DNA of 64,000 nt. Source: Deinococcales bacterium (GTDB taxonomy: Bacteria; Deinococcota; Deinococci; Deinococcales; JAAFIG01). Made by a program: the position numbers and the translations under genes. Positions 3,262-55,079 of the stretch are shown piece by piece (position 1 is the stretch's first letter; every line of letters starts with the position of its first letter). The DNA lies in contig JAYWGM010000092.1 in the NCBI GenBank assembly GCA_043778225.1, positions 4,842 through 68,841 on the forward strand, given 5' to 3'. Under the pieces are notes generated by a model that had not been told where the DNA came from, searched no databases, and saw only the letters and a list, made by a program, of their open reading frames with translations.

Positions 3262-3671
3262 GATTTGCTCCTTTGCAAAAACTCAAACGGACGAATGGTT
3301 TTAACTCCAAATTTATCTGAATCACGAAAGTCTCGGATATTGTAAGTCACAATGTAATCAGACCTAGCGTGCCATGCCAACTCGAGCAAGTGATCGTCTT
3401 TTGGGTCGCGCACGGCTGGTCGCCAAGTATAATAAAGACGTGGTTTAGTGGCAACACTGGCAAGATAATCGAGGACATCTTCAATGCTTTCATGACTAAG
3501 AGGAATTTTCATTTCTGGGCGTTTAAGAACATCTTCGTACTCGAGAATTAGGGCAGTCGAAAGGGCAATAGTAAATTCTTGTTGATACAGCTTAGTCAGG
3601 ATTTGAAAAGCACTTCCTTGGTTTGAACGTAAGCCTGAAACTAAGATGTTGGTGTCAAGCACAACTTGCAT
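3258..3671 (-). CDS. PIN-domain toxin (VapC-like)
   Basis: 'VVLDTNILVSGL' is an N-terminal acidic PIN motif. The protein is 137 aa and is translationally coupled to the antitoxin ORF. Confidence 0.7.
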   Translation of the reverse strand: MQVVLDTNILVSGLRSNQGSAFQILTKLYQQEFTIALSTALILEYEDVLKRPEMKIPLSHESIEDVLDYLASVATKPRLYYTWRPAVRDPKDDHLLELAWHARSDYIVTYNIRDFRDSDKFGVKTIRPFEFLQRSKS

Positions 3672-13705: not shown

Positions 13706-14206
13706 ATGTTACAATTGCTTCGTTCAGACAATTTAATCAGAGCGCTTGGCGCTCGAGGAGGCGTTCTTTTGCAACTTGAGGGAAACAACATCATTCAGGC
13801 GACTCCAGAACAGATTTTTATTGCCCTGCAAGACCCTGCGGTGCTGGCAAAGTGTGTCCCGGGGGTCAAAAAACTCGAGGTTGAATCCGAAGGGGTTTTT
13901 AAGACCACGCTCGAGGTGGCGGTCGGACCAGTCAAAGGCACATTCAACGGTAAAGTCAGTGTGCTTGAAAAACTCGAGAACACTGCCCTGACCTTAAAAG
14001 TCGAAATGCGTGCCCCAGTTGGAATTGCCAGTGCCATCGGGCGAGTGACGTTTCACCCCGAAGAAGGCGCAACCAGAGTCCATTGGAGTGGTGAACCACA
14101 ACTAGGCGGTATGATTGCCAGTGTTGGTGCGCGTCTGATTGGCGGCGTTGCCAAAGCCCAAGCTGATTTATTTTTCTCAAAACTCGAGCAAGAATTACGT
14201 CAATAA
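13706..14206 (+). CDS. coxG: CoxG/SRPBCC family protein
   Basis: 'PEQIFIALQDPAVLAKCVPGVKKLE...GPVKGTFNGKVSV' is the CoxG signature. The start position is uncertain. Confidence 0.7.
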   Translation: MLQLLRSDNLIRALGARGGVLLQLEGNNIIQATPEQIFIALQDPAVLAKCVPGVKKLEVESEGVFKTTLEVAVGPVKGTFNGKVSVLEKLENTALTLKVEMRAPVGIASAIGRVTFHPEEGATRVHWSGEPQLGGMIASVGARLIGGVAKAQADLFFSKLEQELRQ

Positions 14207-14294: not shown

Positions 14295-14771
14295 ATGGCA
14301 GACAAAGTTCCAATTACCCTGACCGTCAACGGCATCAAGCACAGCGCTCATGTCGAGCCACGCACCCTGTTGGTGCAATTTTTGCGCGAACAACTTTTTT
14401 TAACCGGCACGCACGTCGGTTGTGACACCAGCCAGTGCGGTTCTTGTACGATTCACATGGATGGTATGGCGGTCAAATCCTGCACGATGTTTGCGGTGCA
14501 AGCCAATGGCTCGAGCCTGACCACGATTGAAGGGCTTGGTGAGATTGGCAACCTCCACCCACTCCAAGAAGGTTTCTGGGAAATGCACGGTTTGCAATGC
14601 GGCTACTGCACCCCCGGGATGATCATGAGCGCCGCCGATTTGTTGCAGCACAACCCTCAGCCCACCGAAGCCGAAATCCGCCATGGACTCGAGGGAAATT
14701 TTTGCCGTTGCACTGGCTATCATAATATCATTAAAGCTGTTCAATACGCCGCCGATAAGATGGCAGGGTGA
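14295..14771 (+). CDS. coxS: (2Fe-2S)-binding small subunit of a CODH/xanthine dehydrogenase-family enzyme
   Basis: '[16 protein letters not shown]' and '[13 protein letters not shown]...CRCTGYHNI' are the two [2Fe-2S] motifs. Confidence 0.9.
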
Positions 14772-14823
14772 AAGGGTCAAAAGGTTAAAAGTTTTTCACA
14801 TTTAACCTTTTGACCCTTTCACC
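14767..14823 (+). repeat. perfect 23-bp-stem hairpin of the GGTNAAAAGG family (an 'empty' site)
   Basis: GGTGAAAGGGTCAAAAGGTTAAA (14767-14789), an 11-nt loop, then TTTAACCTTTTGACCCTTTCACC (14801-14823). It overlaps the coxS stop codon. Confidence 0.9.
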
Positions 14824-14851
14824 TTTTCACCTTCGCTTTTAAGGAGTTTCT

Positions 14852-17215
14852 ATGACCGAGAAGTATTTTGGTAAAGCCATGAAGCGCGTTGAAGACCCGC
14901 GTTTTATCACTGGGGCGGGGAATTATACCGATGACCTTGCGGTGCTGCACATGACCCATGCGGCGATGGTTCGCAGTCCGTATCCTCATGCGACGATTAA
15001 GAGCATTGACTCGAGTGTCGCGCTTGCGCTGCCGGGCGTGCTGGCGGTTCTGACGGGTAAGGATTTGGTTGGGGCGGGGATTAACCCAATTCCTACCGGT
15101 TGGTTGTTGCCAGACTTAAAAATCTCGGCACACCATGCGATTCAGCCCAACGAAGTCAATCATGTTGGCGATATTGTGGCAGCCGTCGTGGCAGAATCTC
15201 GAGCCATTGCCGAAGATGCCGTGGCTTTAATAGACGTGGATTACGAGGTTCTCGAGAGTTTATCTTTGGGTTCGGATGCCTTAGCCGAAGGCGCAGTTCA
15301 GGTTCATCCAGAAGCGCCGGGTAATTTGGCGTTTGACTGGACAATTGGCGATAGCGCCGCCGTAGATGCCGAATTTGCTAAGGCAGATAAAATCATTAAG
15401 CTCGAGCTTCGCAACCACCGCCTTGTGCCAAATGCGATCGAGCCTCGAGCCAGTCTTGCTGAGTACAAACGTGCCTCGGACGAGTACACACTGCACACCA
15501 CCAGCCAGAATCCGCACATTCACCGCGTCATGATTGGTGCGTTTGTGATGGGGATTCCAGAACATAAACTGCGAATTGTCAGCCCCGACGTTGGCGGCGG
15601 CTTTGGCAGTAAAATTTTCCAGTATCCCGAAGAAGTGATTGTGCTGTTTGCTGCTAAACGCTTAAACCGCCCAGTCAAATGGACTGCCCGCCGCTCGGAA
15701 TCGTTTGTCTCCGATGCTCATGGGCGCGACCACGAATCTGTTGCCGAAGCTGCAATTTCTAATGACGGAATGCTGCTGGCTTTGCGGGTCAGTACAATTG
15801 CCAACATGGGCGCATACCTGACCACCTTTGCGCCGGCTGTGCCAACTTATTTGTACGGCACACTCTTAAACGGCACATACAAATGGAAAGCCATTCATGC
15901 CCACGTGCGCGGGGTTTACACCAATACGGTGGGTGTGGATGCCTACCGTGGCGCAGGTCGCCCAGAAGCCACCTATTTGGTCGAGCGGATTGTCAGCATG
16001 GCAGCCCTCGAGCTAGGCATGGATGCCGCCGAGTTGCGCCGTAAAAACTTTATTCAACCCGATGAATTTCCGTACCAAACCCCAGTGGCGCTGCAATACG
16101 ACAGTGGCAATTATGAACCCGCGATGGACAAAGCCCTCGAGAAATTGGGTTATAAGCAGTTGCGGCTCGAGCAAGCCGAAATGCGAAAACAGGGCAAATA
16201 TATTGGGATAGGTGTCTCCACCTTTGTTGAAGCCTGTGGACTTGCGCCCAGTGCCTTGGTTGGTTCTTTAGGCGCACAAGCCGGGCAATGGGAATCTGCC
16301 TTAGTGCGCGTGGCTGCGACTGGCAAAGTCGAAGTTTTAACAGGCAGCCACAGCCACGGACAAGGACACGAAACCGCTTTTGCCCAAGTGGTTGCCGACG
16401 AACTACAAATCCCAGTTGAGGATGTGATGCTGGTACACGGCGATACCGCCCGTCTACCGCACGGATGGGGCAGTTATGGCTCGAGAAGTGCGCCAGTCGG
16501 ATTAAGCGCGATTACTTTAGCGTGTCGCAAAATTACTGATAAAGCCAAGAAAATCGCTGCCCATTTGCTCGAGGCTTCAAGCGAAGACATGGAACACGTC
16601 GGCGGAAATTTCCAAGTCAAAGGCGTTCCAGAACGCTCAAAATCCTTTTTTGAAGTCTCTTTGATGGCGCACCTTGCTCATAATTACCCAGCCGACCTAG
16701 AACCCGGACTCGAGGCAACCCATTTTTATGACCCGAAAAACTTTGTCTACCCATTTGGTACGCATTTAGCCGTGGTCGAAGTTGATGCCGATACTGGACG
16801 CACCAAACTGATTCGTTACGTCAGCGTGGATGACTGCGGACCTCGAGTCAATCCATTAATTGTGGATGGACAACTGCACGGCGGAATTGCCCAAGGCATG
16901 GGACAAGCCTTGCTCGAGAACACGGTTTACGATAAAAGTGGGCAACTGGTCAGTGGTTCATACCTTGAGTACACCATGCCTCGAGCCGATGACATGGTAC
17001 AAGTTGAACTTGACCACACCGTTACACCCAGCCCGCACAATCCACTCGGCTTAAAAGGCATTGGTGAAGCTGGCACAATCGCCAGTACCGCCGCCGTCGC
17101 CAATGCCGTCATGGATGCCCTCGAGCCATTTGGGGTTAAGCATCTGGATATGCCATTTACTGCCGAGAAAGTCTGGCGAATCATGCAGCCTAAACTGCTC
17201 GAAGCCGCAGATTAA
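14852..17215 (+). CDS. coxL: molybdopterin-binding large subunit, form-II CoxL-like
   Basis: 787 aa. 'GGGFGSK' is present, and the active-site loop reads 'VDAYRGAGRPEA', which is the AYRGAGR form-II motif rather than the form-I VAYRCSFR. Confidence 0.85.
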   Translation: MTEKYFGKAMKRVEDPRFITGAGNYTDDLAVLHMTHAAMVRSPYPHATIKSIDSSVALALPGVLAVLTGKDLVGAGINPIPTGWLLPDLKISAHHAIQPNEVNHVGDIVAAVVAESRAIAEDAVALIDVDYEVLESLSLGSDALAEGAVQVHPEAPGNLAFDWTIGDSAAVDAEFAKADKIIKLELRNHRLVPNAIEPRASLAEYKRASDEYTLHTTSQNPHIHRVMIGAFVMGIPEHKLRIVSPDVGGGFGSKIFQYPEEVIVLFAAKRLNRPVKWTARRSESFVSDAHGRDHESVAEAAISNDGMLLALRVSTIANMGAYLTTFAPAVPTYLYGTLLNGTYKWKAIHAHVRGVYTNTVGVDAYRGAGRPEATYLVERIVSMAALELGMDAAELRRKNFIQPDEFPYQTPVALQYDSGNYEPAMDKALEKLGYKQLRLEQAEMRKQGKYIGIGVSTFVEACGLAPSALVGSLGAQAGQWESALVRVAATGKVEVLTGSHSHGQGHETAFAQVVADELQIPVEDVMLVHGDTARLPHGWGSYGSRSAPVGLSAITLACRKITDKAKKIAAHLLEASSEDMEHVGGNFQVKGVPERSKSFFEVSLMAHLAHNYPADLEPGLEATHFYDPKNFVYPFGTHLAVVEVDADTGRTKLIRYVSVDDCGPRVNPLIVDGQLHGGIAQGMGQALLENTVYDKSGQLVSGSYLEYTMPRADDMVQVELDHTVTPSPHNPLGLKGIGEAGTIASTAAVANAVMDALEPFGVKHLDMPFTAEKVWRIMQPKLLEAAD

Positions 17216-17220
17216 GAGCA

Positions 17221-17683
17221 GGGGTAAAAGGTCAAAAGGAGAAAAGGTAAAAAGTGGATGTCCGAGATAGGGTTGAACGATTTGAAGACTTGATGGTTTG
17301 GCAAAAAGCTCGAGTTTTGACTAAGGAAGTTTACCGAATGACAAGTATAGGACAGTTCGCTCGAGATTTTGGGCTGAGTCAACAGATTCAGCGTGCTTCT
17401 GTGTCCATGATGTCAAATTTAGCCGAGGGATTTGAACGAGGAGGACGTGCAGAGTTTCATCAGTTTATTGTGATTGCTAAGGCATCATGTGCAGAAGTTC
17501 GTTGTCAACTCTACATTGCCTTAGATGTTGGCTACATCAATCAACTTGAGTTTGATGCCTTAAAAATCAAAGCCGAAGAAATCTCCAAACTCCTAAGCCG
17601 CCTAAAATCTTCTGTCGCCGCCCAACTCAAAAAGAACTAACCACCACAACCTTTTAACCTTTTTCCCCTTTGCCCTTTTCACC
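17221..17683 (+). other. hairpin-bounded insertion carrying the four-helix-bundle gene (IVS-like element)
   Basis: Left arm GGGGTAAAAGGTCAAAAGGAGAAAAGGTAAAAAGTGG (17221-17257). Right arm CCACCACAACCTTTTAACCTTTTTCCCCTTTGCCCTTTTCACC (17641-17683). The arms are imperfectly complementary and belong to the same word family as 14767-14823. Confidence 0.6.
17254..17640 (+). CDS. four-helix-bundle protein ('23S rRNA intervening sequence protein' family, Avd-like)
   Basis: '[21 protein letters not shown]...[47 protein letters not shown]' is the characteristic signature. GTG start inside the left arm. Confidence 0.8.
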
Positions 17684-17700
17684 TCTCCGAAGGAGTCTCC

Positions 17701-18489
17701 ATGTACACAGCCGAATTTGATTACCACAAAGTCTCGAGTGTTGCCGATGCACTGGCAGCCTTGGCAGCCAATCCAGATGCCAAATTATTAGCCGGTGGGC
17801 ATTCGCTAATTCCTACTATGAAGTTACGCCTTGCCGCCCCAAGTGCTTTAATAGATGTCTCGAGTATCGCGGGGCTAAAAGGCATTCGACTCGAGGGTGA
17901 CAGCATCATCATTGGTGCGATGACCACCCACCGCGAGCTTGAACACTCGAGTTTGCTCAAAGAAAAATGCCGTATTCTGCCTGAGCAAGCTGCCCTGATT
18001 GGCGACCCGATGGTTCGCAACAAAGGTACAATCGGTGGGGCATTGGCGCACGCCGACCCAGCTGCCGATTATCCAGCCAGTATGCTAGCACTTGGTGCGA
18101 AAATGAAAATCGAAGGCTCGAGTGGGGCTAGGGTTGTGAATGCTGACGAGTTCTTCGTTGGGATGTTCCAAACAGCCGTTCTCGAGGGTGAGATGCTGAC
18201 CGAAATTCATATCCCGAGCAACACGCTAGGCAGTGCTTATGAAAAGTTCGCTCACCCTGCCAGTCGCTATGCAATTGTTGGCGTGGCAGTGGTCAAGCAC
18301 TCAGATGGTTCAACTCGAGCCGCCCTGACAGGTGCAGGAGCTTGTGCTGTGCGTTTACCGAAACTCGAGGCAGGGGAGACCACGGGTTTGATTGCCGCTT
18401 CGGAGTTGCTGTCTGACCATTTTGCCAGTGCCGAATACAGAGCGCATTTGGTGGATGTGATGGCGCGAAAAGCCTTGGCTCGAGTTTAA
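17701..18489 (+). CDS. coxM: FAD-binding medium subunit (CoxM-like)
   Basis: 'LLAGGHSLIPTMKLRL' and 'TIGGALAHADPAADYP' are FAD-binding PCMH-type motifs. Confidence 0.85.
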   Translation: MYTAEFDYHKVSSVADALAALAANPDAKLLAGGHSLIPTMKLRLAAPSALIDVSSIAGLKGIRLEGDSIIIGAMTTHRELEHSSLLKEKCRILPEQAALIGDPMVRNKGTIGGALAHADPAADYPASMLALGAKMKIEGSSGARVVNADEFFVGMFQTAVLEGEMLTEIHIPSNTLGSAYEKFAHPASRYAIVGVAVVKHSDGSTRAALTGAGACAVRLPKLEAGETTGLIAASELLSDHFASAEYRAHLVDVMARKALARV

Positions 18490-18501
18490 GGTTTTGAATT
18501 G

Positions 18502-18534
18502 GCTGAGGCGGCTTTTTGTCGTCTCAGCTTTTCA
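18502..18534 (+). terminator. rho-independent terminator after coxM
   Basis: 9-bp stem GCTGAGGCG/CGTCTCAGC (one G-U pair) followed by TTTTC. Confidence 0.55.
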
Positions 18535-18649
18535 TTCTCAAGCCCGTCGTCTAAACCAACGTCTGCCCATTCCATTATTTCGCTTGGACTAAAATTTTGA
18601 ATTTCTTTTTCTATCGTCTCGAGACGGCTCATACTTGGTAGTATAGCGC

Positions 18650-20905
18650 ATGAGCGAATTTACCCACCTTGGTAAGGGTCGAAAAATTATTGATGGTCTC
18701 GAGAAAATTCTGGGTCAAGCGCAGTACGTGGCTGACCTTGAGTTCGCTGGAATGCTGCATATCAAATTGGTGCTGAGTGTTTATGCTCATGCCAAAATTA
18801 GGGCGTTGCATCTCGAGGCGGCAAAAGCCATGGATGGAGTCGTGGCGGTGCTCACTTTTGATGATTTACCAACCCGCCATAAAATTATCAATTCGCGTTC
18901 CAGTGCGGTTTTGGCGCGGGATGTGGTGCTGTTTGCGGGTCAACCGATTGTGGCTGTGGTGGCAAAAACCGCCGAACTGGCTGCCGATGCTGCTAGCTTG
19001 ATTGACATCGAGTATGAAGAATTGCCAGTTGTGCCAGACATGGCAGCTTCTCGAGCCGAGCAGATTATTGTGTGGCAAAACGGTGTGCCAAAAGAAGGAG
19101 CGGATTTAACCTCTTTGCATGGCGATACGGCGGTTGGAGCATCACAACAGATTACGGGGTCAAACATTCTTGAGTCAAAAACCTTCTCGAGGGGTGATGT
19201 GGGGGCTGCTTTTGCCAGTGCCGATATTATTCTCGAGCAGACGTTTTCTACGCCGTGGGTGCATCAGGCATACCTCGAGCCTCATGCAGCTGTGGTTGTG
19301 CCGGGGACAGAATTAACAGTCTACTCGAGTACCCAAGGGCAGTTTGCGGTGCGTTCCGAAGTGGCACGGCTTTTGGGGATGCCCGAACGCAAGGTGCGGG
19401 TTGTACCAATGACGGTCGGCGGTGGTTTTGGGGCAAAATATGGGTTAATCGAACCGCTTGTGGCGGCAATTGCAGTGGCGCTGAATAGACCAGTCAAAAT
19501 GGTTTTAACCCGAAGTGAAGACATGATGACCACCACTCCTGCTCCAGCCACCGAATTTAAGGCACGGCTGGCAGCAAATTCAAATGGCGATTTATTGGCG
19601 CTCGAGACCGATGTGGATATGGACAATGGTGTTTTTCCATTTGGCTTTGGCAGTATTGTAGCCATGCTTTTTGGTGGCACGTACAAATGCCCGAGTTTCC
19701 GAGCTACGATTCGGCAATTGGCAACCCATAAGCCGCAAGGCGGAGCATACCGTGCGCCCGGAGCGCCCCAAGTCGCCTTTGTTCTCGAGAGTTTAGTAGA
19801 TGAACTGGTGCGTCGCGTCAAAGCCGACCCAATCACATGGCGGCTGCGTCATGCGGTTGTGGCTGGCGACCCAACTGGAACAGGGGCAACTTGGGGTGGA
19901 ATTGGTATGCGCGATGTTCTCGAGGCAGCCCAAAAACATCCAATCTTGACTGCGCCTCGAGAACCAAATGTGGGTCTTGGCATTGCCGTTGGCGCGTGGG
20001 GTGGGGCATTTTCCCCGGCTGGTGCGGTTTGCCGCATTGAACCAGACGGCACAGTGCGGCTTCAAGTGGGCAGCGTGGACATCAGTGGGGTGCATAGTTC
20101 CTTGGTGTTGGTGGTTGCTGAAACGTTAAGCATTGAACCCGAAAGTATCGAACTGGTGCAGGGCGATACCAACATGGGTCCATATGCCCCTGCTTCGGGC
20201 GGTTCGCAAGTCACGGTTAGTGTCTCGGGCGCGGTGCTGGATGCCTCGAATAGTGTTAAACAACAACTTCTTAAACTGGCAGCCTCCGAACTCGAGGCGC
20301 ACATCGAAGATTTAGAACTTAAAAACGGTCAAGCCCAAGTCAAAGGCGTGCCAGACCGTGGTATCACGATTGCCAAACTGGCTGGAATTGCCCAACGCAA
20401 AGCTGGTGGCGATGGTCCAATTGTCGCCCAAGGACGCAGTGCCATGAAATCTGGTGCGCCCGGCTTTGCGGTTCACTTGGCAAAAGTTCACGTTGACCCA
20501 GAGACTGGTTTTGTTACACCACTCCAGCAAGTTGCTATTCAAGATGTTGGTTTTGCCTTAAATCCAACCCTTGTCCAAGGGCAAATGCACGGCGGTACAG
20601 CCCAAGGCATCGGCATGGGTTTATACGAAGCTATGCGTCACGACCAAGTTGGTGGTCACAGCACCGCCAATTTTCTCGAGTACGCTTTTCCACGCGCCAC
20701 TGATATTCCGCCACTCGAGACGACGATGGTACAAAACCCGTCTGACGCTGCTCCGTTTGGCGCTCGAGTGGTTGGCGAACCGCCACTTGTGCCGGGTGCA
20801 GCCGCGATTTGCAATGCGATTTTTGATGCCGTCGGGGTGCGGATTCTCGAGCTACCCGCCAAGCCCGAAACCATTTGGCGTGAGATGAAAAGGTTAAAAG
20901 GTTAA
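18650..20905 (+). CDS. second xanthine dehydrogenase-family molybdopterin-binding subunit
   Basis: 751 aa with 'GGGFGAKYG' and 'GGAYRAPGAPQ'. It has its own -10 box (TAGTAT, 18639-18644) 5 nt before the ATG. Confidence 0.8.
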   Translation: MSEFTHLGKGRKIIDGLEKILGQAQYVADLEFAGMLHIKLVLSVYAHAKIRALHLEAAKAMDGVVAVLTFDDLPTRHKIINSRSSAVLARDVVLFAGQPIVAVVAKTAELAADAASLIDIEYEELPVVPDMAASRAEQIIVWQNGVPKEGADLTSLHGDTAVGASQQITGSNILESKTFSRGDVGAAFASADIILEQTFSTPWVHQAYLEPHAAVVVPGTELTVYSSTQGQFAVRSEVARLLGMPERKVRVVPMTVGGGFGAKYGLIEPLVAAIAVALNRPVKMVLTRSEDMMTTTPAPATEFKARLAANSNGDLLALETDVDMDNGVFPFGFGSIVAMLFGGTYKCPSFRATIRQLATHKPQGGAYRAPGAPQVAFVLESLVDELVRRVKADPITWRLRHAVVAGDPTGTGATWGGIGMRDVLEAAQKHPILTAPREPNVGLGIAVGAWGGAFSPAGAVCRIEPDGTVRLQVGSVDISGVHSSLVLVVAETLSIEPESIELVQGDTNMGPYAPASGGSQVTVSVSGAVLDASNSVKQQLLKLAASELEAHIEDLELKNGQAQVKGVPDRGITIAKLAGIAQRKAGGDGPIVAQGRSAMKSGAPGFAVHLAKVHVDPETGFVTPLQQVAIQDVGFALNPTLVQGQMHGGTAQGIGMGLYEAMRHDQVGGHSTANFLEYAFPRATDIPPLETTMVQNPSDAAPFGARVVGEPPLVPGAAAICNAIFDAVGVRILELPAKPETIWREMKRLKG

Positions 20906-21029
20906 AAGGGGGAGTAGGTTTTTACTTCTTGACCATATACACGCACCCATCTTGGGCAGCACCTTCTTGCTCACAAGACAGCACCTATCGGGCTGCTTGC
21001 GCTTCGTGCATGGTCGCTTTTAACCTTTT
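20888..21029. repeat. third GGTTAAAAGG-family inverted repeat, enclosing ~100 bp of non-coding DNA
   Basis: AAAAGGTTAAAAG occurs in tandem (20888-20900 and 20896-20908), and its exact complement CTTTTAACCTTTT lies at 21017-21029. The site is between convergent genes. Confidence 0.7.
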
Positions 21030-21047
21030 CTACTTTTCCCCTAGACC

Positions 21048-22493
21048 TCAGTCTAGATTAAACTCCATGCTATCAAAGACATCCTGAGTGGCATGGCGGA
21101 CGGTGGGGGTGTCTGGGGCTTGATAAAACTCGCCTTGAAAAAAGCCTCGAGTCAGTTTTTGCACCACGGGCATCAGAATAAATAAAGCGATGATGTTTGG
21201 CACTGCCATGATAGCCAATAAAAATTCGGCACTCGAGAGAAAGCTGCCATATTCGACCACAATAAATGGCGCAAGAAAAACCATCCCGACCCAGACCAAA
21301 CGCAACGACCAACGCAAGCCATCGCCAAATAAATGCCCAAAGGCTTCTTCGGCATAGAGCGCCCATGCGATGGTGGTGGCGATGGCAAATAGCGTAATCA
21401 CGACGGCTAATGTGCCTGTGCCTAAGCCTGCCAGTTGCTCGTTAAAGTTTGTGCCAACCACCCCAAGGCTACGAAAAGCACTGGTCACGGTTTCGGCTGG
21501 AATGGCTTCACCCATGCCTTGCCAAACGGCTGGCACGGTTAAAACCGCCAGAGCCGTTAAACTCGAGACCATCAGTGCCACAAAAACCTCGACCACGCCC
21601 CAAAAACCTTGACGCACAGGATGATCAACTTGGGCTTGAGCGTGAGCGATACTCGAGACCCCTAAGCCCGCCCCAGTGGCAAAAATACTGCGGGCAAAAC
21701 CTTGCGAAACAATTGCAAAAAGTGCATAGCCCGTGCCGCCAGCCGCCGCCGCATTAAAAGAAATTACGCCTGTAAAAATACTGGCAAAAGCACTGGGGAG
21801 AACCGCAAAATTTTTAATGATTAAACCAATCGCTAAAACTGCATAAATACCCAGCATTAAAGGAAATAATACTTGTGCCACTCGAGCAATTCGGGTTGCG
21901 CCACCGCCGATAATCAGCAGCACAATAATTGCCATCACCAGACTCGAGAAGACTGGGCGCAGTTCAAAACTGGCTTCAAGGGCGGTGGTTGCCCCCGAAA
22001 TTTGCGCTAAATTGCCAAGTGCAAAAGCGGCAATAATTGCCAAGACCGAAAAAGCTGCTCCTAAAAACTTGCCAATCGGGGCTGGAAAAACGCCTCGAGC
22101 AATGTACAAAAACGGACCACCCAAAATACTGCCATCGCTGTAGATTCGCCGTAAATGCTGTGCCAAGACAACCTCGCCGTATTTGAGTGCCATTGCCAGC
22201 AGACCAAAAACCCACATCCATAAAATTGCACCCGGACCACCCAGTAAAATGCCAGCCGTGACCCCGACAATGCTGCCCGTGCCAACTGTGCCGCACAGGG
22301 CAATCATGGTGGCTTGATAGGCTGTGATTTGACCACTCGAGCCAAAGTGTCGTTCACGGATTGCGCCAATCGTTTCGGTAATAATCAGACCAAGTTTTGA
22401 GAACTGGATTCCACCACTGATAACCGTATATAAAATGGCTGCCAGCAGTAGTGGCACAACAAGGATTAAGGTGCGGAGCAAATCTGGACTCAT
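21048..22493 (-). CDS. alanine/glycine:cation symporter (AGCS family)
   Basis: 481-aa polytopic protein; 'GGPGAILWMWVFGLLAMALKYGEVVLA' is the AGCS signature. Confidence 0.85.
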   Translation of the reverse strand: MSPDLLRTLILVVPLLLAAILYTVISGGIQFSKLGLIITETIGAIRERHFGSSGQITAYQATMIALCGTVGTGSIVGVTAGILLGGPGAILWMWVFGLLAMALKYGEVVLAQHLRRIYSDGSILGGPFLYIARGVFPAPIGKFLGAAFSVLAIIAAFALGNLAQISGATTALEASFELRPVFSSLVMAIIVLLIIGGGATRIARVAQVLFPLMLGIYAVLAIGLIIKNFAVLPSAFASIFTGVISFNAAAAGGTGYALFAIVSQGFARSIFATGAGLGVSSIAHAQAQVDHPVRQGFWGVVEVFVALMVSSLTALAVLTVPAVWQGMGEAIPAETVTSAFRSLGVVGTNFNEQLAGLGTGTLAVVITLFAIATTIAWALYAEEAFGHLFGDGLRWSLRLVWVGMVFLAPFIVVEYGSFLSSAEFLLAIMAVPNIIALFILMPVVQKLTRGFFQGEFYQAPDTPTVRHATQDVFDSMEFNLD

Positions 22494-23417: not shown

Positions 23418-23466
23418 GTATGGCACAGTTCATGGTGTTGTATGGCACAGTTCATGGTGTTGTATG
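23418..23466. repeat. 22-bp tandem repeat, 2.2 copies
   Basis: GTATGGCACAGTTCATGGTGTT occurs twice (23418-23439 and 23440-23461), followed by GTATG. It lies in the divergent region between the DUF4388 and thioesterase genes. Confidence 0.9.
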
Positions 23467-42531: not shown

Positions 42532-43908
42532 TTAGCGGTAATAATTTTTTAACATCTCTTGGTACTCTGGCGGCAAACGCGGGTCAAGCACCGCCGATTC
42601 AGCCGCACGGCGGTACGAGGCGCTGCCAGTCGGGCTGGTAAAGCCATTTGTCGGGTCGCCGGGCAGTTGTAATGCGCCACTGCGAACATTATTGCCTTTG
42701 GCTGTGCCTTGAAGGTATTCGAGCTTGCCTTTGCCACTCTGGCGGTTGGCAGCCACAGGATTCCCATTGGCATCCTTTGCGCCATTTCCGGGGCTGGTGC
42801 TGCGATTGCCTTGGCTGTTGGGGTTTTGTGGGTCAAAACCTTGGGTATCTTCGCCACGGTCGAGGTTGTTGCCTCGAGGGTCGCGTTTTGGTTGATTGCC
42901 CTGTGTGCCATTGCCAGCTTGATTTGCGCCAGATTGCCCGTTTTGTCCATTTTGATCGCCCTGAGCGCCAGACTGCCCGTTTTGGTTATTGGGCTGCCCA
43001 TTTTGCCCATTTTGATTGTTGGGCTGTCCATTTTGTCCGTTTTGGTTTGCACTTTGCTGCCCATTTTGATCGTTTTGGTTGTTGCCACTGCCATTCTGAC
43101 CATCGCTCTTGCCGTCTTCTGAGCCAGACTGACCGGCGGTCGGTGGGTTGGCATCTTCGACTTGACCATCGGGGCTGCCCTCTTTATTGGGGTCGCGGTC
43201 ACGGACTGCACCGCGCTCGAGGGCTTCGAGAAATTCTTTAGAAATGGCTTCTGGACTTTCGGTGGCACTGCCACCACCGGGTTTTAATTCCCCCAGATTC
43301 TGCTCTGAAGCACTGCCCCCCGAGGCTGCTTGTCCGGGTTTGGCATCTGCGCCAGCCGGCGGTGCATCGCGGCTTGGCGCATCAAGGATTGGTTCGGCAG
43401 AACTAGAACTCGAGCCATTGGGTGTATTTGGATTCTCGAGTGATTCGCGGCTGATGGTACGGTCTTCGGCACTGATTTGGCTACCCAGTCCTCGAGTCGG
43501 CAAAACCAAAAGTAAACTCAGCAGTACCGCCATACCAAGCGTCTCGAGCCAAGGCAGTGGCGGCAACTCGGTGTTTTTTTGCACCGTCAGTGCCATGTTG
43601 TCCAACCGATTTTTGAAGCCGTGCATATCGGTTTGGGCGGTTAGGGCGGTGGTGTAAGCTGCGCCTGTTGTTTTTTCGATTTCTTGCAGCGTACTTTGGT
43701 AGCTCGAGCTTGGCATCAAAAGACCCAACAGCGCCAACAGCAACCAAAATGGCGAAGCCCCCAATATCCAAATTGCCAAGAGTAACCCAGCCACAGCAAT
43801 CAGCACGGCTCGAGCTTTGATTTGAAAAGCCCGTCTCGAGAACCACTGGCGATGCAGCTTGAGGTTTGGATGTTGCCACCAAGTTGGTAGGGAAGGGGTA
43901 CGAATCAT
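42532..43908 (-). CDS. membrane protein with a long Asn/Gln/Gly-rich low-complexity region
   Basis: N-terminal TM helices, an (NGQ)n-type repeat region and a conserved-looking tail 'RLPPEYQEMLKNYYR'. It is third in a three-gene overlapping operon. Confidence 0.55.
   Translation of the reverse strand: MIRTPSLPTWWQHPNLKLHRQWFSRRAFQIKARAVLIAVAGLLLAIWILGASPFWLLLALLGLLMPSSSYQSTLQEIEKTTGAAYTTALTAQTDMHGFKNRLDNMALTVQKNTELPPLPWLETLGMAVLLSLLLVLPTRGLGSQISAEDRTISRESLENPNTPNGSSSSSAEPILDAPSRDAPPAGADAKPGQAASGGSASEQNLGELKPGGGSATESPEAISKEFLEALERGAVRDRDPNKEGSPDGQVEDANPPTAGQSGSEDGKSDGQNGSGNNQNDQNGQQSANQNGQNGQPNNQNGQNGQPNNQNGQSGAQGDQNGQNGQSGANQAGNGTQGNQPKRDPRGNNLDRGEDTQGFDPQNPNSQGNRSTSPGNGAKDANGNPVAANRQSGKGKLEYLQGTAKGNNVRSGALQLPGDPTNGFTSPTGSASYRRAAESAVLDPRLPPEYQEMLKNYYR
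42890..43105 (-). repeat. imperfect coding tandem repeats (CCCATTTTG-type units encoding NGQ/NQNGQ)
   Basis: Encodes 'QNGSGNNQNDQNGQQSANQNGQNGQPNNQNGQNGQPNNQNGQSGAQGDQNGQNGQSGANQ'. Confidence 0.75.
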
Positions 43909-54733: not shown

Positions 54734-55079
54734 ATTGTAATCCTGTAAACCACGAAACCTCGAGATTCAGGACGAGAGGCGTAGAAAAGAAAGAGGCGAA
54801 CTCGAGCGCAAGCAGCCGTCCTGATGAAAGGCTTGCAACAACTGTCTAGCATACACCAACAATAGTGAAAGTCATGGGCAAAATAGCCTAAGTATCTACC
54901 GCCTTTGTTTTAGATTTTTCAAAATACGGCAAATCTGTCACTTCAGCGGTAGATACGCTGTCCTTACTCCTTCTAGTCGCAAAATGTTTTAGGAAAAACA
55001 CCTAAAACATTTCGGGGAGATACTTAGGTGGTGATTTTGGGTTGACGAGCGGATACTTGACAAAAAATTGTGGACTTAA

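Follow-up and report, generated by a model that had tools for sequence, protein, structure and literature searches.

How does a gene of the "23S rRNA intervening sequence protein" family come to stand in the loop of a long hairpin inside a protein-coding operon? The question is raised by a 64-kb stretch of Deinococcales DNA (hereafter the window, by which we mean the whole stretch, with positions numbered from its first letter). Here, a four-helix-bundle open reading frame (ORF) separates coxL from coxM within a coxS-coxL-coxM operon, and two further hairpins of related sequence stand after coxS and after a second large-subunit gene (Table 1). An earlier note on this DNA had read the three sites as filled, empty, and decayed copies of a mobile or processable intervening sequence (IVS) in an unusual place, an mRNA. 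The parts of that interpretation that concern an IVS-like topology, other copies in the genome, and a derived insert held up; the mRNA setting as an exception, the terms "empty" and "decayed," and recent mobility did not. We place the window element among cassettes of a widespread type, as an octamer-armed representative from the Deinococcota; the classical ORF-bearing rRNA IVS would be a special case of this type.

At the gene-bearing site (site 2), the left arm holds both a Shine-Dalgarno-like sequence (GGAG/AAGG) and the GTG with which the enclosed ORF starts. The TAA stop of this ORF ends 4 to 7 nt ahead of the right arm, beyond which come the Shine-Dalgarno sequence (GAAGGAG) and ATG of coxM. 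The arms after coxL thus enclose a single four-helix-bundle ORF, as had been described. The minimum free energy (MFE) fold of positions 17205 to 17700 (496 nt) pairs the two arms into the enclosing stem that inverted repeats form in an IVS; the same fold pairs GUGG of the start with CCAC after the stop. The duplex (−32.7 kcal/mol) was better than all 1263 other windows compared and all 300 shuffles. No direct duplication flanking the arms was visible on inspection. In location, the element differs from the classical IVS, as it is flanked by coxL and coxM and does not lie inside a 23S rRNA gene (helix 9, 25, or 45).

The enclosed ORF is intact and belongs to the protein family that includes S23p and Avd of diversity-generating retroelements (DGRs). 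It matches PF05635 with 122.1 bits (cutoff, 33.8; E value, 1.5e-35) over profile positions 1 to 105 of 106, corresponding to residues 11 to 115 of the 128-aa product, and TIGR02436 with 109.3 bits (cutoff, 24; E value, 1.1e-31). The nearest solved relative is XCC0516 (PDB entry 2GSC; E value, 1.9e-13), and homologues of the product number >4000 close matches. The public gene call is a shorter, 100-aa version (17338 to 17640) that begins at an internal ATG and would drop the first helix. The 128-aa version, with its GTG inside the left arm, is backed by homologues (88% identity) and by the Pfam match.

The two other sites are hairpins of the GGTNAAAA repeat family without a four-helix-bundle gene. 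At site 1, the left arm, (GGTNAAAR)3-4, is followed by a loop of ~5 to 10 nt and a right arm that is its complement. The 36-nt arms are 86% complementary, with a perfect core of ~25 bp; the site folds with an MFE of −43.1 kcal/mol (z = −9.0), and no window was as good as its duplex (−44.3 kcal/mol; 0/1550). In agreement with the earlier description of a perfect-stem hairpin over the coxS stop codon, this codon (TGA, 14769 to 14771) lies within the left arm; 19 nt separate the end of the right arm from the coxL ATG. At site 3, 22-nt arms (86% complementary) enclose 108 nt of noncoding DNA, close to the ~100 bp first estimated. The fold pairs these arms (z = −4.8), their duplex energy (−24.3 kcal/mol) is reached by 0.1% of windows, and the left arm overlaps the last codons and the TAA stop of the second large subunit.

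The word family that had been proposed to connect the three sites proved to be an 8-nt tandem repeat, (GGTNAAAA)n, at the left of each site, with its complement at the right. All eight exact matches to GGTNAAAAGG in the window fall inside the three sites, whereas shuffled sequence gave a mean of 0.82 and a maximum of 3. Tandem Repeats Finder reported period 8 at 14793 to 14833, 17226 to 17254, 17648 to 17663, and 20888 to 20909. The resemblance between the stretches preceding coxL (14822 to 14854, CCTTTTCACCTTCGCTTTTAAGGAGTTTCTATG) and coxM (17674 to 17703, CCTTTTCACCTCTCCGAAGGAGTCTCCATG) is also real: CCTTTTCACCT, common to both, is the outermost right-arm unit, and the remainder is Shine-Dalgarno sequence plus spacer.

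Is the insert a recent arrival? Two metagenomic relatives (L001 and L002) carry the gene in the same coxL-coxM junction, with an identity to the window of 88% in the four-helix-bundle protein and 91 to 92% in CoxL and CoxM. Against these relatives, the ORF has a dN/dS of 0.10 at a dS of 0.60, and coxL and coxM have a dN/dS of ~0.055 at a dS of ~1.1. Because of this low ratio and the shared junction, we regard the gene as being under purifying selection, functional, and inherited in place. Recent mobility is not seen here, the cassette having stayed in place over a dS of ~0.6 to 1.1. When the junction was followed into 80 more distant coxSLM operons from a scan for CoxM relatives (identity, ≤69%), none (0/80) had a four-helix-bundle gene in it; because of this absence, we take the cassette to be a derived insertion. 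The closest of the distant operons (L085/L086; 75% CoxL identity) has a hairpin without an ORF at the same junction, built from a different heptamer unit (L085 arms AGCGATGAGCAATAAGTAATGAGCTATGAGC and GCTCATAACTCATTGCTCATCGCTCATTGC; z = −6.5). A second L085 hairpin follows coxM; the coxM stop is part of its left arm, and 8 nt separate its right arm from the next ATG.

The terms "empty" and "decayed" are labels rather than findings. It is possible that no ORF was ever present at site 1. At site 3, the window and L001 are homologous only as far as the arms, which are 108 nt apart in the window and enclose 1.84 kb in L001 (10020 to 11870, corresponding to window positions 20909 to 21016). The L001 insert consists of unrelated genes (a DUF6932 gene and an HTH_3/HipB-like gene), with no four-helix-bundle remnant. 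This gene pair (DUF6932 plus helix-turn-helix antitoxin-like) is toxin-antitoxin-like, and a 28-nt stretch of the window's site 3 spacer matches the L001 insert in inverted orientation.

Does the architecture extend beyond cox operons? We examined 80 loci with the closest relatives of the protein (55 to 66% identity; best match, 66%) from GTDB species-representative genomes, to which the window's own genome does not belong, covering Cyanobacteria, Chloroflexota, Nitrospirota, Acidobacteriota, Desulfobacterota, Planctomycetota, Gemmatimonadota, Proteobacteria, Deinococcota, and other phyla. Almost everywhere, a 7-nt tandem array lies upstream of the gene and a reverse-complement array lies downstream, with units that include GGACTGA, GAGTGCT, GAGTGAT, GAGCAAT, and GTGGAAA. 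Upstream-downstream complementarity exceeded that of every control window of the locus in 57 of 77 loci, from more than 10 phyla (median score, 19.5 versus 6.7). The best ungapped arm has a median length of 29 nt; the distance from its end to the start codon is 27 nt, and the partner arm starts 21 nt downstream of the stop. Four-helix-bundle genes elsewhere might have lacked such flanks, as the earlier note had allowed; instead, the flanking inverted arrays, and with them the topology of an ORF-bearing rRNA IVS, are family-wide. The design is kept at 49% protein identity (a Nostoc plasmid, with GGGGAAA-type arms) and at 42% (Riemerella, with AAGGTTN arms, inside the suf operon). The flanking arrays were also predicted for Xanthomonas and proved to be present there: an XCC0516-type gene stands between accB and accC and is flanked by GGGAATC-type arrays and their complement (GGGAATCGGGAGTGGAGAATCGGGAATCGG upstream and ACCCATTCCCCATTCTCGACTCCCTATTCCC downstream, the latter followed directly by the accC ATG). 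Seven Nitrospira loci (L027, L028, L043, L044, L053, L054, and L082) have an upstream GGACTGA-type array and a longer ORF (~147 aa), with no recognizable downstream arm.

The repeat unit varies between loci while the arms stay complementary: there are 25 unit classes, each matched by its own complement. The GGACTGA unit alone occurs in 28 loci from at least 10 phyla. We asked whether the unit tracks protein lineage or host phylum and rejected this, as there is essentially no correlation; protein identity is ~0.62 to 0.64 in all classes, whether or not unit or taxon agree. The period is 7 in 69 of 70 upstream arrays. The sole period-8 array is from Calidithermus, also a member of the Deinococcota, whose unit (AGGTGAAA) and ORF-less hairpin (GGTGAAAAGGTCAAAAGGGTAAAGGGTGAAAAG...) are nearly the words of the window. 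The window array likewise has period 8 and not the 7-nt unit by which heptamer repeats of the simple sequence repeat/short tandemly repeated repetitive (SSR/STRR) type are defined. A stop codon in the sense direction is present in 57 of 70 upstream units, compared with 33 ± 3.8 for shuffled units. As neither 7 nor 8 is divisible by 3, such stops can recur in every frame; all three frames are stopped by 48 of 70 arrays in sense and by 5 of 70 in antisense. The other arm, by symmetry, acts likewise on the opposite strand.

Neighboring genes are mostly co-oriented with the cassette (64/75 upstream and 58/73 downstream), with gaps of ~50 to 75 nt. Annotated host junctions are groES-groEL (L025, Phycisphaeraceae), a fadB-like gene/thiolase (L080, Thermoflexus), merR-clpB (L033), accB-accC (L165/L168, Xanthomonas), and the suf operon (L170, Riemerella), each of which is split by the cassette. 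None of the 80 loci is in rRNA (0/80); thus, the rRNA location is the rare case and operon junctions are the norm for this gene family, so the protein-coding operon that had seemed an unusual setting is the usual one. In one locus (L048), a S-adenosylhomocysteine (SAH) riboswitch (3506 to 3583) lies ~130 nt downstream of the four-helix-bundle cassette, which is thus upstream of a riboswitch-controlled gene. Apart from this riboswitch, Rfam at its gathering threshold gave no match, neither for the window nor for any of the 80 loci; when an E-value threshold was used, the matches were trivial ones between the site 1 hairpin and microRNA-precursor models, and no others.

Gene-free hairpins of the same kind are found elsewhere as well. 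Inverted array pairs with a short loop and no ORF occur within 3 kb of cassettes in a dozen loci, and those in Calidithermus (L018) and Thermoflexus (L080) share their unit with the cassette arms. At distances of >400 nt from the gene, 7- to 8-nt arrays number 21.4 per 100 kb, compared with 2.5 in cox control loci (~ninefold). For the window organism, ~nine further contigs with arm-like sequence were found in its two metagenomes, many with the left arm joined to the right arm and only 3 to 16 nt between. Because the depth of these contigs equals that of this genome in both samples (~25 to 30 and 12 to 14), the repeat family is dispersed in the genome of the window organism, and the concern that the hairpin family might have no other copies there falls away. 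Not every carrier has dispersed ORF-less hairpins, however: in a 102-kb Riemerella record, the arm unit is confined to the cassette.

We consider it fairly probable that the window element is a PF05635 cassette in an octamer-array stem, with the design of its relatives and of the rRNA IVS and with putative processing by RNase III. The cassette would have no promoter of its own and would be transcribed by read-through within the host operon. In the RNA, folding predicts that the arms pair into stems of ~25 to 35 bp, which would hide the Shine-Dalgarno sequence and the GTG of the enclosed gene. By analogy with Coxiella, RNase III would cut inside the stems; cutting would part the flanking cistrons and release a short-lived loop RNA, and insertion into an essential operon or rRNA would thereby be tolerated. 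Translation of the enclosed gene would be limited to the short interval that precedes synthesis of the 3′ arm. The 5′ arms, which are purine-rich and Shine-Dalgarno-like and usually have stops in all three frames, would also insulate translation.

Several points weigh against this account. The site 2 stem is imperfect, with small internal loops between helices of 5 to 8 bp, and that of L001 is weaker still (−24.7 kcal/mol); RNase III might nick or ignore such a stem. Cleavage is extrapolated from one experimentally studied relative, which resides in another setting (rRNA). The stop-codon enrichment could come from common descent of a TGAG core and not from function, and some unit families have no stops (e.g., GGGAATC and GAGTTCC). 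In addition, mismatches in the arms comprise 39 G:U and 37 A:C pairs and thus no G:U excess, although the test is of low power. Selection on RNA pairing as such is therefore not demonstrated, and the missing bias is what would be expected of a palindrome that originates or is maintained at the DNA level, unlike one under long-term selection for RNA pairing. Taken together with the rapid, concerted turnover of the unit in both arms, it suggests events on the DNA itself, namely palindrome correction combined with slippage, or else the work of a dedicated factor.

One possibility, which we put forward tentatively and regard as rather improbable, is that PF05635 proteins and inverted 7- to 8-nt arrays form a widespread two-part system in which the protein binds, creates, spreads, or maintains the hairpins. 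Such a system may parallel that of the repetitive extragenic palindromic (REP) doublets forming hairpins (REPINs) and the REP-associated tyrosine transposases (RAYTs), with a nonenzymatic or novel activity.

Slightly less probable again is a repeat system that operates wholly on DNA, whose palindromes are made, copied, or kept via cruciforms or hairpins, template switching, and slippage, with the protein as a RAYT-like trans-acting partner and with incidental effects on RNA. The absence of a G:U bias, the fast turnover of units (which differ between relatives at the same junction), and the near independence of protein similarity from unit and host taxon are all consistent with such a system. 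So are the ~ninefold density of arrays beyond the immediate vicinity of the gene, the variation of heptamer copy number among Coxiella strains, and the unit family shared by cassette arms and ORF-less hairpins in four of five genomes checked (the window, Calidithermus L018, Thermoflexus L080, and Xanthomonas). The protein is an awkward candidate for this role, as no catalytic motif is known in this helical bundle of 128 aa, and its relative Avd is a nucleic acid-binding and reverse transcriptase-binding cofactor, not a recombinase. The Riemerella record further indicates that dispersed hairpins are not obligatory, the window cassette has been immobile over the divergence given above, no target-site duplication is visible, and phage matches are lacking while plasmid ones are few. 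A defense-system or phage origin of the protein was rejected, there being no PADLOC, PHROGs, or phage-genome match and only 30 plasmid records. As for features of miniature inverted-repeat transposable elements, the inverted arms and the ~nine further copies in the metagenome are present, no flanking duplication was seen on inspection, and we know of no transposase for the PF05635 family.

That the structures are ordinary intercistronic hairpins, grown by slippage around stop codons and serving as REP-like stabilizers, partial terminators, or means of translational coupling, with the gene as an unrelated passenger, strikes us as unlikely. The ORF-less hairpins do fill their spacers exactly: their left arm takes in the upstream stop, and their right arm runs almost up to the next start (sites 1 and 3; L085). 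In addition, TTTT follows site 1. Xanthomonas arrays lie a mean of 28 nt after the upstream ORF (PMC4692102), and heptamer arrays beside start codons affect expression in Nostoc (bioRxiv 10.1101/2022.06.06.494920). However, the association between PF05635 genes and arrays, which spans many phyla and extends to 42 to 49% identity, is not a coincidence, and stems of 25 to 50 bp far exceed stabilizer or terminator hairpins. An intrinsic-terminator reading in particular was rejected: a terminator scan made no call at sites 1 to 3, where the stems are 22 to 36 nt long and A/T-rich, and found a normal terminator after coxM. Finally, a chance resemblance of low-complexity purine-rich and pyrimidine-rich spacers is refuted by the shuffle, window, word-count, and periodicity controls and can be dismissed, for although A/G-rich and C/T-rich segments pair fairly well when shuffled (shuffled-arm means, −13 to −21 kcal/mol), the observed duplex energies beat all 300 shuffles at each site and ~99.9 to 100% of the other windows of the sequence, the word occurs 8 times where 0.82 would be expected, none of the three sites lacks the 8-nt periodicity, and the same architecture recurs in dozens of unrelated genomes.

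Three lines of observation come together here. PF05635/TIGR02436 genes are among the commonest bacterial genes without an assigned function, often with several per genome; overrepresented heptamer repeats have been noted since 1990 without explanation; and ORF-bearing rRNA IVSs have been a curiosity for 30 years. Our data tie these together. The repeat arrays that form the cassette arms also stand by themselves at other places in the genome, and the ORF-bearing IVS looks like an uncommon, rRNA-resident form of a general cassette that normally occupies housekeeping operon junctions (groESL, accBC, fadBA, suf, and cox). The gene-in-hairpin design as a general rule across bacterial phyla seems undescribed so far. 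If RNase III processing is confirmed, the cassette would be a natural portable module for gene insertion into an essential operon without polar effects. If the two-part system is true, it would explain the heptamer excess (STRRs and GGGAATC), the abundance of four-helix-bundle genes, and the origin of ORF-bearing IVSs. Cultivable carriers of the design exist in Xanthomonas (X. campestris), Calidithermus (C. chliarophilus DSM 9957, with the octamer family of the window), Nostoc, and Riemerella.

The surroundings of the element are summarized in Table 1. The terminator after coxM is a G+C-rich hairpin, unlike the repeat-array hairpins at the other gene ends; because it directly follows coxM, the second large subunit is probably a transcription unit separate from coxS-L-M, and the unit with sites 1 and 2 probably ends at this terminator. 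AYRGAGR in coxL (15941 to 15961) is the "form II" CoxL-type active-site loop, as opposed to AYXCSFR in form I, and the paralogue has AYRAPG in its place. Because of these large-subunit motifs, the cox operon may not encode a true CO dehydrogenase. Public sequencing runs that contain this region comprise two biofilm and two freshwater DNA metagenomes and no RNA run; the contig itself is found in two biofilm metagenomes. The FtsY protein encoded in the window has 75 to 79% identity with proteins of Deinococcus, Meiothermus, and "Deinococcales bacterium," and the organism is therefore an uncultured member of the Deinococcota.

The window is also rich in the palindrome CTCGAG, with 403 copies compared with ~15 expected from composition and with 56 for the next 6-bp palindrome. 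Its median spacing is 125 nt, and it is found in all three codon frames. The excess recurs in relatives (71 in 12.4 kb and 94 in 9.8 kb, among L001, L085, and L086) and is milder in other Deinococcota loci. The pattern resembles the cyanobacterial "highly iterated palindrome" HIP1; a literature search gave no paper on it. Other repeats, unrelated to the hairpins, are a 30-nt-period repeat (×3.6) within a long ORF (42974 to 43084), a perfect 22-nt tandem duplication (GTATGGCACAGTTCATGGTGTT ×2.2; 23418 to 23466), and a 33-nt inverted repeat with a 76-nt spacer (54887 to 55028).

Table 1. Genes, hairpin arms, and other features of the cox region (window positions)
Feature	Position	Strand	Remarks
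Host operon coxS-coxL-coxM	14295-18489	+	Cassette placed in coxL-coxM junction
coxG-like gene	13706-14206	+	Gene list and Pfam
coxS, 2Fe-2S small subunit	14295-14771	+	Gene list and Pfam
Site 1, hairpin without ORF, coxS/coxL junction	14757-14833	+	Arms 14757-14792 / 14798-14833
coxL, molybdopterin large subunit with AYRGAGR	14852-17215	+	Stop codon 17213-17215
Site 2 left arm, GGGGTAAAAGGTCAAAAGGAGAAAAGGTAAAAAGTG	17216-17256 (about)	+	Four octamer units; begins directly after coxL stop
Four-helix-bundle ORF, 128 aa	17254-17640	+	GTG start, TAA stop
Site 2 right arm, AACCTTTTAACCTTTTTCCCCTTTGCCCTTTTCACCTC	17645-17685 (about)	+	Imperfect complement of left arm
coxM, FAD subunit	17701-18489	+	ATG at 17701
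Intrinsic-terminator-like hairpin with T-run, canonical, G+C-rich	18501-18529	+	Terminator scan
Second large-subunit paralogue	18650-20905	+	TAA stop in site 3 left arm
Site 3, between convergent genes	20887-21038	+	Arms 20887-20908 (GAAAAGGTTAAAAGGTTAAAAG) / 21017-21038 (CTTTTAACCTTTTCTACTTTTC)
Na:alanine symporter, convergent	21048-22493	-	Gene list

How, then, does the cassette compare with systems already known? RNase III-processed intercistronic stems are known from the phage T7 early region and from Escherichia coli rpsO-pnp. These are likewise long stems between cistrons, of a kind that would split a polycistronic RNA and alter what becomes of the pieces; in contrast to the window stems, for which cleavage is putative, they enclose no gene and carry no tandem arrays. 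REP/REPIN elements with their RAYTs resemble the cassette in their dispersed short palindromic hairpins and in a gene flanked by inverted genome-specific copies. They differ in that the window-type gene encodes a small helical bundle, the arms are 7- to 8-nt tandem arrays and not a single REP, and dispersed copies are absent in at least one cassette carrier (the Riemerella record). Membership in the REPIN/RAYT group was rejected, as the enclosed gene matches only PF05635 and no Y1 (RAYT) transposase. Avd of DGRs belongs to the same protein superfamily as the window ORF product, and PF05635 resembles Avd as a four-helix bundle that is a pentamer in solved relatives (PMC10053308). A role as a DGR accessory gene was ruled out: no reverse transcriptase (RVT) family is among the Pfam hits in the 10 kb on either side of the ORF, and no long direct repeat pair that could represent a template/variable repeat was found near it. 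Inverted arrays are, moreover, not a feature of DGRs.

Heptamer repeats, too, have been published. In Xanthomonas, there are 186 (GGGAATC)n arrays, of which 70 to 75 form close convergent pairs (Rehm et al. 2015, PMC4692102), and TAACTGA repeats precede start codons in Beggiatoaceae and cyanobacteria (PMC4679880). Like the window arrays, these repeats and the STRR heptamers of heterocystous cyanobacteria are short intergenic arrays near the 3′ end of the upstream gene or before starts, often in convergent pairs able to form stem-loops, and their length and sequence turn over fast between relatives. Unlike them, the window unit is an octamer and is not prone to form G-quadruplexes. The papers make no link to PF05635, a family that the Xanthomonas study does not mention (PMC4692102), whereas the Xanthomonas PF05635 gene was found here between two such arrays. 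A literature search of incomplete coverage gave no paper in which flanking inverted arrays are connected with PF05635 genes, an absence that is not proof.

The ORF-bearing rRNA IVS shares the design of the cassette. In Coxiella, a Shine-Dalgarno sequence and two to three tandem GACAGAT heptamers precede the S23p ORF of the 23S rRNA IVS, the number of heptamers varies among strains, and RNase III cuts within the stem, yielding a short-lived excised RNA (PMC4990558). The window element differs from this IVS in its host transcript, which is a protein-coding operon and not rRNA, and in its unit of 8 nt instead of 7. The window ORF is under purifying selection, whereas that of Coxiella is reported to be decaying and untranslated, and RNase III cleavage is published for Coxiella and predicted for the window. 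In both, tandem repeats stand just upstream of the ORF; the IVS is transcribed within its host transcript, as is predicted for the window element. As in the rRNA IVSs of Coxiella (helix 45, with S23p) and Leptospira, site 2 places a PF05635 ORF in the loop of an inverted-repeat stem.

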